64,000 bases of DNA from Thermomicrobiales bacterium. Its GTDB lineage: Bacteria; Chloroflexota; Chloroflexia; Thermomicrobiales; UBA6265. Shown piece by piece: positions 52,986 to 60,510 of this stretch. The position numbers and the translations under genes are program-made. Position 1 is the first letter of the stretch. Every line of letters begins with the position of its first letter. A model generated the notes under the pieces. The model ran no database searches. It had not been told where the DNA came from and saw only the letters and a list, made by a program, of their open reading frames with translations. The stretch covers positions 130,216 through 194,215 of the forward strand of contig JAXLWU010000003.1 in the NCBI GenBank assembly GCA_046328335.1, written 5' to 3'.

Positions 52986-54110
52986 ATGGGCGGCTGGGAT
53001 CGATTCAGTGAATGGGTTGCCACGCTCGTGGTCGCGGCGATGACCTGGACATCCGGCGTCCTTGCCCCGCAACCACCGCATGACGCTGTATCCACGGCAG
53101 ATCCTGTTCCAGCCGCGATGCAAGCATGGGCGATCGCGCTGCCAGCGCAACTCGATTCGCCGCAGATCGAGCCGCAAACCGACGATGTCGAAACGCTCGA
53201 TGAGGGAGCACCTCCGACTGCTACGAGCACAACCACCGATCAGTCGGGAACGTCGGCGCCGATCGAGGCGACCGGCGATCAAGATATCGAACTGCTCGAT
53301 CAGGGAACGCCGCCGCCGACCCAGGTCACGACATCAGAACCGGTGGCGGTGACCAGTGAACCGGCACCGGTTTCGAGTGAGCCGGCTCCGGTGGCAGCGG
53401 CGCCGATGTCGGCGGAGACGACGAGTGCCGCTCCTGTGGCGTCGGGACCAGTGCTGCCGCCGGGATTTGGCACGGGGCGGGTGCAGGTGGCGGCGGGAAA
53501 CAACGGATTTCCAACGGGACTTGCCAATTGCCACGTTGGCGCCGTGACGGGCCGTGCCTACGTCGGTATCGACTGCGGCGACACAGATGATGCGTTCGTC
53601 GGTCACGCGGCGTCGTTCACCGATTTTCCGTTCGTCGTTGAAGCGCCGTTTCCATTCAACGACTCGAATGAACCGGCCGGCACAACGTCAACGGTCGACG
53701 ACAACCCCAGTGCGAACGATCAATTCGTCCTGAACAACACCGGGGCCGACTCTTTCTTCGTGCGCGATCCGCGTGTCCCGAACGTGGAGACGAACGGATC
53801 GAGCGGATCGGTCGTTTCGCTGGCGCAGAAATCTGGGGAGCACCCCCGGGATCGAATCGAACAGCAGGGTTCGCACAAGGCGCGTTCACAACACGGCGGT
53901 TCATCTACGAAGGCCCAGCGAGCCGATGACTCGAACACCGATGTCGGCTCGGCAAGCAAGGACAGCAAGCAGAAGCATCACAAGAGCGAGAAGAAAAAGG
54001 ACAAGAGTAAAGAAAAGAACAAGAAAGAAGATAAGAAGGATTCCAAGGATAAGAAGAAGAAAGACAAGAATGGTCAAAATAGGAAGAGCGACAAAGACGA
54101 GAACAAGTGA
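52986..54110 (+). CDS. Membrane-anchored/secreted hypothetical protein with Pro/Ala/Ser-rich repeats and extremely Lys-rich C-terminal tail
   Basis: 374 aa. The N-terminal TM is WVATLVVAAMTWTSGVLA. SEPVAVTSEPAPVSSEPAPV repeats are present. The last ~60 aa are KDSKQKHHKSEKKKDKSKEKNKKEDKKDSKDKKKKDKNGQNRKSDKDENK. Confidence 0.5.
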   Translation: MGGWDRFSEWVATLVVAAMTWTSGVLAPQPPHDAVSTADPVPAAMQAWAIALPAQLDSPQIEPQTDDVETLDEGAPPTATSTTTDQSGTSAPIEATGDQDIELLDQGTPPPTQVTTSEPVAVTSEPAPVSSEPAPVAAAPMSAETTSAAPVASGPVLPPGFGTGRVQVAAGNNGFPTGLANCHVGAVTGRAYVGIDCGDTDDAFVGHAASFTDFPFVVEAPFPFNDSNEPAGTTSTVDDNPSANDQFVLNNTGADSFFVRDPRVPNVETNGSSGSVVSLAQKSGEHPRDRIEQQGSHKARSQHGGSSTKAQRADDSNTDVGSASKDSKQKHHKSEKKKDKSKEKNKKEDKKDSKDKKKKDKNGQNRKSDKDENK

Positions 54111-54336: not shown

Positions 54337-55122
54337 CTAACTGTTGAAATCGACGTTGTTGTTGCCGCCGTCTGATGATGGCGTTGGTACTGGCGTCAGA
54401 TTTGTCGTGCCTGACGTATCGGTACCGGTGCGAATGAGTTTGGCGCCGTCCGGGCCGGAGATGGCCGTGACCCCGTCCGAGCGGGCAAACGCGAAGCCGC
54501 CGCGTCCACTCACCTGCGCGATCACATCCGGATTCGACTGAACGGTCAGGTCGACATTGGACGAATCATCGGGCGACGGGGTTGGGAATGTGACGTTGGG
54601 ATTGGTCGACGGCGGGGAGGACGGCGTCGGGGTCGGCGAGGGGTTGTCATCGGCGCGGCCGCGCTGCGCGAAGTCCGCGTCGCCATCACTGCTGTTATCG
54701 TCGTCGCGGTTATCGTCATCGCTGGTGTCGTTACTGTTACTGGCGGATTGGGAGTGATCCGACTTCCGATCGGACTTGTCACTGTCTCCGGTGTCGCCGC
54801 GGTTCCGGTTCTTCCCTCCGCCGTCGGAACCACTATCCTGGGCCGAATCCTTTTCGGCGCGGCGATCGCGGGACGCGTCGTCCTTGCTGCTCGATTCGCT
54901 ATCGTCGTTCTTGTTGCCGTTGTCTTTGTTGCTCGCGGTGTCGTCGGATTCCGCGTGGTCAAATCGCTGCTTGTTACCCTTGCGCGCCGCTCCAAATCCG
55001 ACAGGAATCAGTGATGTCAACCCGAGGGCCGCGAGGATTCGCGCCGGACGTGTCGTCAGGCCCTGGCGTGCGTCAGCCAGCGACGGAATGTGCACGATTC
55101 GATTCCCTTCCCCACCGATCAC
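54337..55122 (-). CDS. Secreted hypothetical protein with long Asp/Ser/Asn-rich acidic low-complexity region
   Basis: 261 aa. The N-terminal signal-like segment is TTRPARILAALGLTSLIPVGFGAA. The central ~120 aa are D/S/N/K/R low complexity (SDDTASNKDNGNKNDDSESSSKDD...), followed by a Pro/Thr/Ser-rich C-terminus. Confidence 0.5.
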   Translation of the reverse strand: MIGGEGNRIVHIPSLADARQGLTTRPARILAALGLTSLIPVGFGAARKGNKQRFDHAESDDTASNKDNGNKNDDSESSSKDDASRDRRAEKDSAQDSGSDGGGKNRNRGDTGDSDKSDRKSDHSQSASNSNDTSDDDNRDDDNSSDGDADFAQRGRADDNPSPTPTPSSPPSTNPNVTFPTPSPDDSSNVDLTVQSNPDVIAQVSGRGGFAFARSDGVTAISGPDGAKLIRTGTDTSGTTNLTPVPTPSSDGGNNNVDFNS

Positions 55123-57242: not shown

Positions 57243-57698
57243 TCACTCGTCCTTGAGGTCGAAGCGAACTTCGACCTCGTGCAGAATCGTTACGGAAACG
57301 ACCGTGGCGATCGTCGCCACCGCGCCAAGAACGAAGAAGCCCGCGCCAATGAGAAGACCGATTGCCGCGGCTACCCAGATGCCGGCCGCGGTGGTGAGAT
57401 TCTTGACCGATTTGCCCTGGGTGAGAATCAGGCCACCGGCGATGAAACCGATGCCCTGGACCACGGTAGAGGCGATGCGCGTCGGATCGGAGACGTGTCC
57501 GCTGGCCATCACCTGGCCGCTGACCAGAATCGAAAGGATCATGAAGAGCGCCGCGCCTTCGACCACCAGCATGTAGGTGCGAATGCCGGCCGGTTTGTTG
57601 GCGCGACGCCGCTCGAAACCGAGCACGATGCCTGCCACCATGGCCAGGGCCAGGCGCTGAATCGATTCGATATCCGATGGGATCTCCACGTCAGGCAC
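57243..57698 (-). CDS. MgtC/SapB family membrane protein
   Basis: 151 aa. RLALAMVAGIVLGFERRRANKPAGIRTYMLV is the MgtC N-terminal signature. Confidence 0.8.
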   Translation of the reverse strand: MPDVEIPSDIESIQRLALAMVAGIVLGFERRRANKPAGIRTYMLVVEGAALFMILSILVSGQVMASGHVSDPTRIASTVVQGIGFIAGGLILTQGKSVKNLTTAAGIWVAAAIGLLIGAGFFVLGAVATIATVVSVTILHEVEVRFDLKDE

Positions 57699-57776: not shown

Positions 57777-58331
57777 TTAGAACTGCAGGATGACCGAGTG
57801 TTCCTCGCCGTCCCGCAGGAACCGTGCCGTGGCCTTGTCGCCCGCTTTGAGCGTCTCGACCATCTGATCCAGCGCCGCCATATTGCGAACGCGCTTGCCG
57901 GCGAAGGTGGTAATGATGTCCCCTGGTCGAATTCCCGCTCGCTCCGAGACCGTATCAGGCCGGATCTTGCCGATGTAAATCCCCTTGGTCCCGGCAGGAA
58001 CGTTCTCCGCCTTTTCCGGGTGCTTTGTCAGGTATTCCTCCGCATCGGCGGCGAGAATGCCGAGTGGCGGCCGCTTCGGTCCGGCGAACTTCTCCGCCAG
58101 TTTGGAGAATTTGCGCTGGTCGAACCCGAGGATGACCTCGCCATCAGCGACCGTCACGGGAACGCCCTGCTGTCCGCTGAGCCGAATCATTTCCAACGCG
58201 GCGTTGTAATCGCGAGCGACATCTTTCTCGACGAAGGGAACCTTGCTGCGGCTAAGGAACTCCTTAGCTCTGTCGCACCACGGTCAGGTGTCCGTGGTGT
58301 AAATCGTTACCTGGGGGAGCGCCTCTGCCAT
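57777..58331 (-). CDS. Candidate selenoprotein: glutaredoxin-like (YruB/NrdH-type, U-P-W-C) domain fused to a PDZ domain; in-frame TGA at 58286..58284
   Basis: The same frame as track ORF 57777..58196 extends upstream to ATG 58331: MAEALPQVTIYTTDT[TGA]PWCDRAKEFLSRSKVPFVEKDVARDYNAALEMIRLSGQQGVPVTVADGEVILGFD, then the PDZ domain (GIYIGKIRPDTVSERAGIRPGDIITTFAGKRV). A GAGG RBS lies 6 nt before the ATG, and a hairpin follows 15 nt after the TGA. Confidence 0.6.
58244..58277 (-). promoter_or_regulatory. SECIS-like hairpin downstream of the in-frame UGA
   Basis: Minus-strand RNA: UGCG-ACAGA-GCUAAGG-AGUU-CCUUAGC-CGCA. This is a 7-bp upper stem, a GU-containing tetraloop, a 5-nt bulge and a 4-bp lower stem. 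The lower stem begins 6 nt and the upper stem 15 nt after the UGA. Confidence 0.45.
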
Positions 58332-58442
58332 CTGGTGCCTCGTCTCGAGCAATCTGTAAACCGGGTGGCTGATTCACCACCTGGAGACCCAATGCCGTTA
58401 TGGTACCAGCACCGCGTCTCATGACATGAATGCGTTCATGCC

Positions 58443-60035
58443 TTATTCCCACTCGATGGTGGCGGGCGGTTTGGAGGAGATGTCGTACACGACGCGGGTG
58501 ATGCCATGAACTTCGTTGACGATGCGATTACTGATGCGCGCCAGTGTCTCATGTGGGAGGCGGGCCCAATCCGCGGTCATCGCATCCTCAGAGGTCACAG
58601 CGCGGACGGCGCAGACCCGGCCATAGGTCCGGTCGTCACCCATGACCCCGACGGAGCGCACCGGCAGGAGGACCGCGAAGTACTGCCACACCGGTTCTTC
58701 GGCAATGGTGGCATCGATTTCTTCGCGCACGATCGCGTCCGCGCCACGGAGCAGGTCCAGGTCTTCGCGCGTGACCGGACCAAGGATCCGCACCGACAGC
58801 CCTGGTCCGGGAAACGGCTGCCGGTCGACGATCGCGGCGGGAAGACCGAGAGCGCGCCCGACGTGGCGGACTTCGTCTTTGAAGAGAAATCGCAGCGGTT
58901 CGAGCAGCGGAAAGCGGAGATCCTCCGGGAGACCGCCGACGTTGTGGTGCGTTTTGATCTTGGCCGCGGCTTTGGTGTCCGCGGTCGTGCTTTCGATTAC
59001 GTCGGGATAGAGCGTGCCCTGGGCGAGGAAATCGAATGGACCGAGCCGGTCCGCCTCGGCCTCGAACACCCGGATGAACTCCTCGCCGACGATCTTGCGC
59101 TTGGCCTCGGGATCGTCAACGCCGTGCAAACGCGTCAGAAAGCGCTCAGACGCGTCGACGAAGACCAACGGCATGCCGAACGCTTCGCCGAAGACCTGGC
59201 GCACTAATTTTGCTTCACCGAGACGGAGGAGACCGTTGTCGACAAAGACCGGCGTGAGGCGGTCGCCGATGGCGCGGTGAATCAGCGCGGCCGCGACCGA
59301 TGAATCGACGCCACCGCTGAGACCGAGGAGGACCTGGCCGTCTCCAACGGTCGCCCTGATCTGATCGACCGCGGCGTCGATGAAATGTTCCGGCGTCCAA
59401 TCGGCACGGCAACCGCAGACATCGACCAGGAAGTTGCGGATGACTTCCCGGCCCAGGGGCGTATGGACGACCTCGGGGTGGAACTGAATGCCAAATCGCG
59501 TGCCGTCGCTCATTCCCGCCAGGGGAGCATTCGGCGAACGGGCGATGGCGGCAAAACCCCGCGGCAGACGAGCGACGTGGTCTCCGTGGCTCATCCAGAC
59601 TTGCATGGTCGGCGGCAGATCCGTGAACAGCGGCGATGTTGCGTCAACCGCGACGACCGCGGGCCCATATTCACGGCGTGACGCGGGTTCGACCTGGCCG
59701 CCCGCGGCCAACGCGAGGAGTTGCATGCCGTAGCAAATGCCGAGTACTGGCTTGTCGTAATCACGCATCCATGTCGGCAGACTCGGCGCACCCGGCGCAT
59801 AGACACTGGCTGGACCACCGGAGAGGATGATTCCCCGCGGCTCGAGCGCCATGATGTCCGGCAACGGGGTATCCCAGGGGAGCAGCACGCTGTAGACGCC
59901 CGCTTCACGCACCCGGCGCGCGATGAGTTGGCTGTACTGGCTGCCGAAATCGAGAACGATGACGGTGTCGAACGATGTTTTCGCGCTCTGCTCGCGCGAA
60001 GTGGCCGTGGCTTCAGGGGGGGTCGTCGCGGTCAT
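58443..60035 (-). CDS. guaA: GMP synthase (glutamine-hydrolysing)
   Basis: [25 protein letters not shown] (GATase), ICYGMQL, and SGGVDSSV (ATP-PPase P-loop), ending in IEWE. The start is at ATG 60035; GTG at 60041 is an alternative. The upstream part of the track ORF overlaps rusA and is rejected. Confidence 0.9.
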
Positions 60036-60510
60036 CGTCACCTGTCTTTTCGTCTCCTTCACCGTCGGATGCACCAAGGTAATAGTATGTGCGATCGAAT
60101 TCCCACTCGGTGATTGTCTCGATTTCCACCTCGACTCGCGGCCGCAGCGGGTCGATCCGCTTCGACAGGTGGACGTCAACGATGGCCCGGTCGTCGAAAC
60201 CGAGGGCCCGTCCCAGCGCATCGAGCGTGATCTTCAGCCCGCCGTCCAGGTCCCGGCGGTGTGGCGTCGCGAAAAAGTAGTCGAGATAGACGCCAAGCAG
60301 CGATTGACCGAAGGAGCGTTCGATTGACGGCAGCAGGAGGCCCTTGCCGCGAAGTTGGGCGATCGTCTTGTCGACATCGCGATTGAACGACCGGGCCTCG
60401 GCACTGAGCACGCGGCGACGTCCGACCGTGGCGTACTGGCTGTTGACGCTGGGCGGTAGAGGAAGGGCCAGACGAAGAGATGCCGGCGCAGCCGGCGTTT
60501 TCTCGGGCAT
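60013..60510 (-). CDS. rusA: RusA-family Holliday junction resolvase with acidic C-terminal tail
   Basis: [53 protein letters not shown] aligns with E. coli RusA blocks (LPWPPSNNRYY, RRRDLDNLQKAAFDAL, DDAQVVD). Its 3' end overlaps the guaA start by ~23 nt. Confidence 0.75.

Follow-up and report, generated by a model that had tools for sequence, protein, structure and literature searches.

A glutaredoxin–PDZ gene of a Thermomicrobiales bacterium whose in-frame UGA very probably encodes selenocysteine

The window analysed here is a stretch of 64,000 nucleotides (nt) from a Thermomicrobiales bacterium (contig JAXLWU010000003.1), and its minus strand carries a gene in which glutaredoxin and PDZ domains are fused and an in-frame UGA stands at the redox motif. 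A prediction made from the letters alone had taken this gene for a selenoprotein that gene callers cut short, and our comparison with relatives supports it through the pairing of cysteine (Cys) and selenocysteine (Sec) forms, the same TGA in 39 other species, and a conserved hairpin of the Sec insertion sequence (SECIS) type. The locus very probably encodes one cytoplasmic glutaredoxin–PDZ protein of 184 residues, and not a 139-amino-acid (aa) fragment, with the UGA at codon 16 read as Sec via the SECIS.

Results

One UGA in an otherwise complete reading frame

The list of open reading frames (ORFs) gives just 57777..58196 (139 aa) for this gene, as the original prediction had observed, and the TTG taken there as the start is the internal Leu46 of the full protein. 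Translated in one frame, the minus strand runs from ATG 58331..58329 to TAA 57779..57777 as predicted, with TGA 58286..58284 as the sole internal stop, and yields MAEALPQVTIYTTDT*PWCDRAKEFLS...VILQF, in which the asterisk is the TGA. The GAGG said to precede the ATG by 6 nt was likewise found, at 58341..58338.

The close matches in a protein search are of two kinds. Full-length proteins of 181–190 aa are 60–81% identical to the translation and have both domains present, the 184-aa Cys homologues among them showing 73–81% identity across 100% of the length. Many other matches, of 126–154 aa and 76–99% identity, are without the glutaredoxin half. Since the gene callers picked at least five different internal starts (products of 154, 151, 147, 139 and 126 aa), no internal start is conserved. 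The 99%-identical GenBank copy, MFN8590753.1, is a 126-aa entry labelled ‘PDZ domain-containing protein’, and the JGI name for the short fragments is ‘S1-C subfamily serine protease’. Two truncated entries, P0026 and P0045, share contigs with TGA loci (L001 and L006), from which it follows that the short proteins in the databases are artefacts that the TGA causes in gene calling. N-terminally truncated calls account for about 58 of the 120 top database clusters of the glutaredoxin–PDZ family.

UGA and cysteine codons alternate at codon 16 among relatives

Relatives were scanned with one genome per species; 140 stretches encode a relative, the best 80 of these were retained, and 79 were read in frame. 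The best 80 of the 140 all come from metagenome-assembled genomes (MAGs) of Chloroflexota (Thermomicrobiales, Sphaerobacteraceae, Anaerolineae and Chloroflexia), and the fusion, described in the original prediction as unusual, is not so within this lineage. Codon 16 is TGA in 39 of the 79 species-level genomes and TGC or TGT in the other 40. We refer below to the 39 TGA relatives plus the window as the Sec forms (n = 40) and to the others as the Cys forms (n = 40).

Where the window reads stop-P-W-C, the full-length homologues show CPWC or, rarely, CSWC. An alignment with Cys homologues had been proposed at the outset as a check, and it placed their cysteine at the TGA position: the TGA aligns with C16, which is invariant in alignments of 13 and of 60 sequences and in the 40 Cys-form genomes. 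Pfam and the alignment also agree with the claim that the glutaredoxin fold is interrupted solely by a TGA at the N-terminal Cys of CPWC, and the TGA forms retain the second Cys and all glutaredoxin invariants. The base after the UGA is C (UGAC) in 40 of the 40 Sec forms.

In the eight codons before the TGA, roughly one codon difference in two is synonymous, and likewise in the 29 codons from the TGA to the first called start; in the five codons after the TGA, the differences among Thermomicrobiales forms are only synonymous. Judged by these substitutions, which are of the coding type throughout, both sides of the TGA are translated. A decayed N-terminal half in relatives, named beforehand as a sign of a pseudogenised fusion, was not seen; the relatives keep an intact glutaredoxin half, and the gene is therefore not a decayed fusion. 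In a neighbour-joining tree the Sec and Cys forms are interleaved, and the two versions have interchanged repeatedly within Chloroflexota, in line with the dynamic exchange of Sec and Cys that Zhang et al. 2006 (PMC1794560) described.

Among the relatives, the copies at L049 and L021 (P0064) are shortened (90 and 153–159 aa) by frameshift-like defects. P0064 is a Cys form, yet it bears the NCBI name ‘Uxx-star family glutaredoxin-like (seleno)protein’.

A hairpin downstream of the UGA is conserved in the Sec forms

The hairpin GCUAAGG-AGUU-CCUUAGC that had been noticed after the TGA lies at 58268..58251. Its stem of 7 base pairs (bp) begins 15 nt after the UGA, as stated originally (18 nt after the T of the TGA), and its 4-nt loop is reached after 22 nt. 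According to the published rules, a bacterial SECIS has a loop of 3–9 nt, an upper stem of 4–16 bp, a G in the first two loop positions, usually then G or U, and 16–37 nt between UGA and loop (PMC13188914); the window hairpin satisfies all four, in loop size, stem length, G position and spacing.

At least six of the seven stem pairs can form at the fixed position in all 40 Sec forms, against 16 of the 40 Cys forms (Fisher p = 8e-10). The Sec forms fall into two registers, the Thermomicrobiales type with the sequence found in the window (7 bp, 4-nt loop) and an Anaerolineae/Chloroflexia type, GCGAAAGA-GUU-UCUUUCGC (8 bp, 3-nt loop, 23 nt from UGA to loop). The codon for Ser27 (58251..58253 in the window) is AGC in the Thermomicrobiales-type and UCG in the Anaerolineae-type Sec forms (equivalents in L053–L080), and across this switch from AGC to UCG the stem is kept by a 1-nt slide of the 3′ arm. 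Within the two Sec groups, 98.6% and 95.4% of the cells are paired, compared with 28–69% when the partner is slid, and compensatory double changes occur at three stem pairs (U-A/G-C, C-G/U-A and A-U/G-C).

The loop is AGUU, AGUA, GUU or GUA in every one of the 40 Sec forms, with columns G33 and T34 invariant, and CUU serves as the Leu codon in 38/40 Sec forms as against 10/40 Cys forms. Nucleotide divergence over the six hairpin codons is 0.06 and 0.14 in the Sec groups and 0.36 and 0.46 in the matching Cys groups, that is, 3–6 times less in the TGA forms, while the flanks diverge alike. The original prediction had extended the hairpin by a lower stem, UGCG/CGCA. This stem is indeed part of the minimum-free-energy fold, which comes to -22 kcal/mol for the window hairpin, but only 61% of its cells are paired among 20 close TGA-bearing relatives, and by this comparison it does not belong to the conserved element. 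Six Cys forms (L064, L050, L055, L067, L040 and L041) have a full hairpin of 7–8 bp about 18–37 nt after the Cys codon, and these hairpins look like relict SECIS elements after recent Sec-to-Cys replacement.

Glutaredoxin and HtrA-type PDZ domains

For scoring against Pfam and NCBIfam, the TGA position was read as Cys. In addition to the glutaredoxin domain (Table 1), Pfam PDZ_2 (PF13180) matches residues 110–180 with 39.9 bits (cut-off 27, E = 5e-10). The family profile aligns with small glutaredoxins over positions 1–75 and with DegP 255–353 over positions 77–180 (E = 4e-18). An AlphaFold model was built for P0002, a Cys homologue 81% identical to the window protein; it has a mean predicted local distance difference test score (pLDDT) of 87.7 and contains a glutaredoxin fold at residues 8–82, in the order strand-helix-strand-helix-strand-strand-helix, followed by a second domain at residues 92–183. 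In this model, the redox motif (residues 16–19) is at the start of the helix formed by residues 17–28. The solved chains nearest to the glutaredoxin half are the glutaredoxins 7c10 and 1fov, and for the C-terminal half Foldseek returned the HtrA PDZ domain 7l71 (TM-score 0.76, root mean square deviation 2.4 Å, 103 columns). None of the solved structures matched joins both domains.

At the start of the PDZ domain, P85, K86, R87, P89, L90 and G91 are invariant in the 13-sequence alignment; with 60 sequences, this still holds for P85, R87, L90 and G91, and conservation of K86 and P89 is 90% or more. The stretch P85-K-R-P-P-L-G91 corresponds to K-R-G-E-L-G-I of DegP; in HtrA PDZ domains generally, this strand and loop accommodate the carboxylate of the ligand. 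No signal peptide and no membrane or hydrophobic segment was found in the protein, which is therefore cytoplasmic. With the PDZ domain being of the HtrA type, the envelope targeting considered in the original prediction is not borne out.

The C-terminus (57780..57788, minus strand) is a conserved hydrophobic tail: Thermomicrobiales have -[LF]-Q-F, Anaerolineae have -V-R-L or the like, and F184 is invariant in the 60-sequence alignment. The tail may be only the last PDZ strand, or may be a ligand for head-to-tail PDZ binding.

Gene neighbourhood and other observations in the window

The coordinates of the gene, its parts and the neighbouring MgtC-family gene are collected in Table 1.

Table 1. 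Positions of the proposed Sec-glutaredoxin/PDZ gene, its elements and its downstream neighbour in the window
Feature	Position	Strand	Remarks
Proposed Sec-glutaredoxin/PDZ coding sequence, complete	57777..58331	minus	One frame of 184 codons plus TAA 57777..57779; codon 16 is UGA
Shine–Dalgarno-like GAGG	58338..58341	minus	Read from the sequence, 6 nt before ATG 58329..58331; function presumed
In-frame UGA, proposed Sec16 codon	58284..58286	minus	Aligns with the first Cys of CPWC
Putative redox motif U16-P-W-C19	58275..58286	minus	In Cys forms, no variation at C16 and C19 and very little at P17 and W18
Glutaredoxin domain (PF00462)	58131..58310	minus	Residues 8–67; 56.7 bits, cut-off 22.9, E = 2.9e-15; fold extends to about residue 82 in the model
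HtrA-type PDZ domain	57780..58079	minus	Residues 85–184, including the first strand and the loop P89-L-G-I92 (58056..58067)
Putative SECIS, upper stem-loop GCUAAGG-AGUU-CCUUAGC	58251..58268	minus	Encodes A22-K-E-F-L-S27
Extended fold with lower stem UGCG 58277..58274 / CGCA 58250..58247	58247..58277	minus	Minimum-free-energy fold; 5-nt bulge
MgtC-family membrane protein gene	57243..57698	minus	Pfam MgtC, E = 2e-33; 78 nt downstream, same strand

Of the 48 Thermomicrobiales-type loci, 43 have an MgtC gene 0.4–0.7 kb downstream in the same orientation, whether the form is Sec or Cys; no Anaerolineae-type locus has this neighbour. The glutaredoxin–PDZ and MgtC genes may be co-transcribed; we claim no functional link between them. 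Variable, acidic MgtC tails speak against the idea that the PDZ domain binds the C-terminus of the MgtC neighbour, and this idea was rejected.

Upstream of the glutaredoxin–PDZ gene is guaA. Its ORF, 58443..60221 on the minus strand, is extended at the N-terminus by about 62 residues, and this extension overlaps the ORF of a RusA-like resolvase (60013..60510, minus strand). Met63, near 60035, is probably where guaA really starts; the adjacency of the RusA-like and guaA genes recurs in 16 relatives. Elsewhere in the window, the ORFs 52986..54110 (plus strand) and 54337..55122 (minus strand) are of low complexity, rich in Ser, Asp, Lys and Thr, for example in KKDKSKEKNKKEDKK tails, and have no Pfam match. 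A crude scan of the window, looking for an in-frame TGA that is flanked on either side by a coding signal and accompanied by a SECIS-like hairpin, gave this gene and four off-frame artefacts only. Other selenoprotein genes in the window were accordingly rejected, as the scan gave no second credible candidate.

Discussion

Weighing the explanations

Sec is not the only way to account for an internal TGA. A TGC or TGT might have been misread through a sequencing or assembly error, or mutated in a pseudogene with a dead glutaredoxin half, and it is true that the sequence is of the MAG type and that the relatives L049 and L021 carry truncating defects elsewhere in the gene. We consider this explanation extremely improbable in view of the recurrence of the TGA across 39 independent assemblies of different species, produced by many projects, the coding constraint on both sides, the retention of the second Cys together with the glutaredoxin invariants, and the linked RNA hairpin that is conserved in the TGA forms only. 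A genome-wide change of UGA into a codon for Trp or Gly, known from some other bacterial lineages, has a similarly negligible probability, with nothing in its favour beyond the in-frame TGA itself. TGA stops the neighbouring MgtC, ProC and metallo-β-lactamase-fold genes at their expected ends, so that a reassigned code can be regarded as excluded; furthermore, the in-frame TGA sits at the Cys position only, and the crude scan gave no other credible in-frame TGA in the window.

If the TGA acted as an ordinary stop, the locus would produce a 15-residue peptide and, from an internal start, a separate PDZ-only protein. Public annotations do list PDZ proteins of 126–154 aa, and some termination at UGA must occur without selenium. 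Yet the internal starts are not conserved, with at least five different ones in use, the 29 codons from the TGA to the first called start are kept as glutaredoxin sequence with synonymous variation, and a PDZ-only product gives no reason for a hairpin linked to the TGA, all of which makes termination very unlikely as the main outcome. A slightly larger, though still small, chance belongs to recoding that depends on SECIS and SelB but inserts Cys, either via a non-canonical tRNA-Cys, reported by Vargas-Rodriguez et al. 2018 as cited in PMC13582414, or via thiophosphate at low selenium. Such insertion is described, as far as these sources go, in some bacteria; Sec and Cys forms interchange easily in the glutaredoxin–PDZ family, and the status of selA and selD was seen only for the window and the locus flanks. 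On the other side, the phenomenon is rare and the Chloroflexota are documented Sec users, and keeping UGA and SECIS in 40 species for the sake of Cys would bring no obvious gain over TGC.

The reading of UGA as Sec has points against it too. The 64-kb window shows no gene for tRNA-Sec, selA, selB or selD, and neither do the 10-kb flanks around the 39 TGA loci: ARAGORN detected no tRNA gene at all in the window and no tRNA-Sec in the 39 loci, and neither motif scans for SelA (GDKLLGGPQ), SelD (GxGC/UxxK) and EF-type P-loops nor tblastn with an approximate E. coli SelD query gave a hit in the window or the 1.1 Mb of sequence that flanks the loci. As only about 2% of each genome was covered, this negative result says little. 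Rfam reported no SECIS or tRNA-Sec family, at the gathering threshold in the window or at E <= 10 in 58150..58400; for the hairpin this is to be expected, since each bacterial SECIS is specific to its gene. The fold of the single sequence barely beats shuffled ones (z = -1.9, with 12 of 200 shuffles folding equally well), and the significance of the hairpin comes from the comparison with relatives and not from the fold of one sequence. Fairly good pairing at the hairpin site is also seen in 16 Cys forms, so that the amino-acid sequence K-E-F-L alone favours some self-complementarity. As to the protein, its structure is known only as the model of the 81%-identical Cys homologue P0002, not of the U-bearing window protein, and since the predicted template modelling score (pTM) of that model is 0.56, the mutual orientation of the glutaredoxin and PDZ domains is undefined. 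The literature documents Sec use for Chloroflexota generally (Zhang et al. 2006, PMC1794560; PMC13582414), and not for this organism; up to 49 selenoproteins per genome are documented in the phylum. Our search of the literature gave nothing specific on Sec use in Thermomicrobiales.

Proposed mechanism and role

In the selenoprotein that we propose, the comparative evidence suggests that the UGA at codon 16 would be read as Sec in translation. The hairpin, acting as a bacterial SECIS, would bind SelB-GTP-Sec-tRNA(Sec) and pass it to the ribosome paused on UGA-C. Given the two domains, the U16-P-W-C19 centre would then be expected to cycle between selenol/thiol and selenenylsulfide, and the conserved P-L-G-I loop of the PDZ domain lies where the carboxylate-binding loop is found. 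As for the role, the PDZ domain may capture the C-terminal or exposed β-strand peptides of client proteins and present the clients to the selenol, which would reduce disulfides or mixed disulfides; an HtrA capture module would thus be joined to a reductase in place of a protease.

More tentatively, the glutaredoxin–PDZ proteins of Chloroflexota might form a class devoted to client-directed redox repair, in which the PDZ domain, probably acquired from an HtrA protease, captures damaged proteins by their exposed C-termini or strands and feeds them to the reductase, and frequent switching between Sec and Cys tunes the system to selenium supply or oxidative load. We hold this wider idea to be rather doubtful, and know of no such function described for the family.

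Significance

The recoding mechanism itself is standard, and the gene is an ordinary kind of selenoprotein gene. What it corrects is a systematic annotation error, the truncated entries named ‘PDZ domain-containing protein’ or ‘S1-C serine protease’ being probably selenoprotein glutaredoxins, and it extends the known Sec-glutaredoxins by the lineages Thermomicrobiales, Anaerolineae and Chloroflexia and by a new domain architecture. Moreover, the 40 Sec and 40 Cys forms amount to a natural experiment on a SECIS imposed on coding sequence, where it fixes A-K-E-F-L-S and the rare CUU codon; the same set shows the decay of the SECIS following replacement of Sec by Cys.

Comparison with known systems

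Sec-containing glutaredoxins with UxxC are an experimentally verified family of bacterial selenoproteins (table in PMC13188914; Zhang et al. 2006, PMC1794560; Kim et al. 2011). With Grx1 of Alkaliphilus (Clostridium) oremlandii OhILAs and the Sec-glutaredoxins of Geobacter and Moorella, the window protein shares the glutaredoxin fold, the UxxC motif, the existence of Cys orthologues and a SECIS hairpin inside the coding region right after the UGA. The known Sec-glutaredoxins are single-domain proteins of about 80–90 aa, whereas the window protein adds an HtrA-type PDZ domain of 100 residues; it also differs in having the motif U-P-W-C, in having the YruB-like group as its best named relative, and in occurring, among the genomes searched, in Chloroflexota only.

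The hairpin agrees with the bacterial SECIS consensus (the bSECISearch model, with E. coli fdhF as prototype) in its small apical loop with G and then U, its stem of 7–8 bp, the 22 nt from UGA to loop and its location in the coding sequence. In contrast to the fdhF element, with which it has no sequence likeness, it is without the conserved bulged U and its lower stem is not conserved. We also take the G-U of its loop to lie 4 nt further from the UGA than in fdhF (presumably G23/U24 there).

Among the specific NCBIfam models, the best match is to the YruB family (TIGR02196), with 77.7 bits against a cut-off of 88.55. The score for the Uxx-star family NF041212 is 64.0 bits, with U replaced by C (cut-off 66). 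The Uxx-star families (NF041212 and NF041114) resemble the window protein in a distant glutaredoxin-like fold and in carrying Sec as the first residue of the motif; for family 1, UxxT and two Sec residues are listed, whereas the window protein has UxxC, one Sec and a PDZ tail. The Trx7/PDZ (seleno)protein model NF041199 is matched by the PDZ part alone (26.7 bits, cut-off 300). That family provides a precedent for combining a thioredoxin-fold Sec redox module with a PDZ domain, and it differs in using Thioredoxin_7 with CxxU, in its 390 positions and in its domain order.

The first PDZ domain of HtrA, DegP and DegQ is the closest counterpart of the C-terminal half, which aligns, together with the preceding strand, with DegP 255–353 and superposes on HtrA PDZ structures. 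Unlike those proteins, the window protein has no protease domain and carries a glutaredoxin in that place; DegP positions 235–323 of 434 alone match, so it is no member of the HtrA proteases and the JGI label ‘S1-C subfamily serine protease’ on truncated forms is wrong. Our literature search found no description of a glutaredoxin–PDZ selenoprotein. Since the protein also scores below every specific NCBIfam cut-off, we regard it as a new, misannotated member of a known family, a Sec-glutaredoxin whose distinctive feature is its uncharacterised fusion to an HtrA-type PDZ domain.

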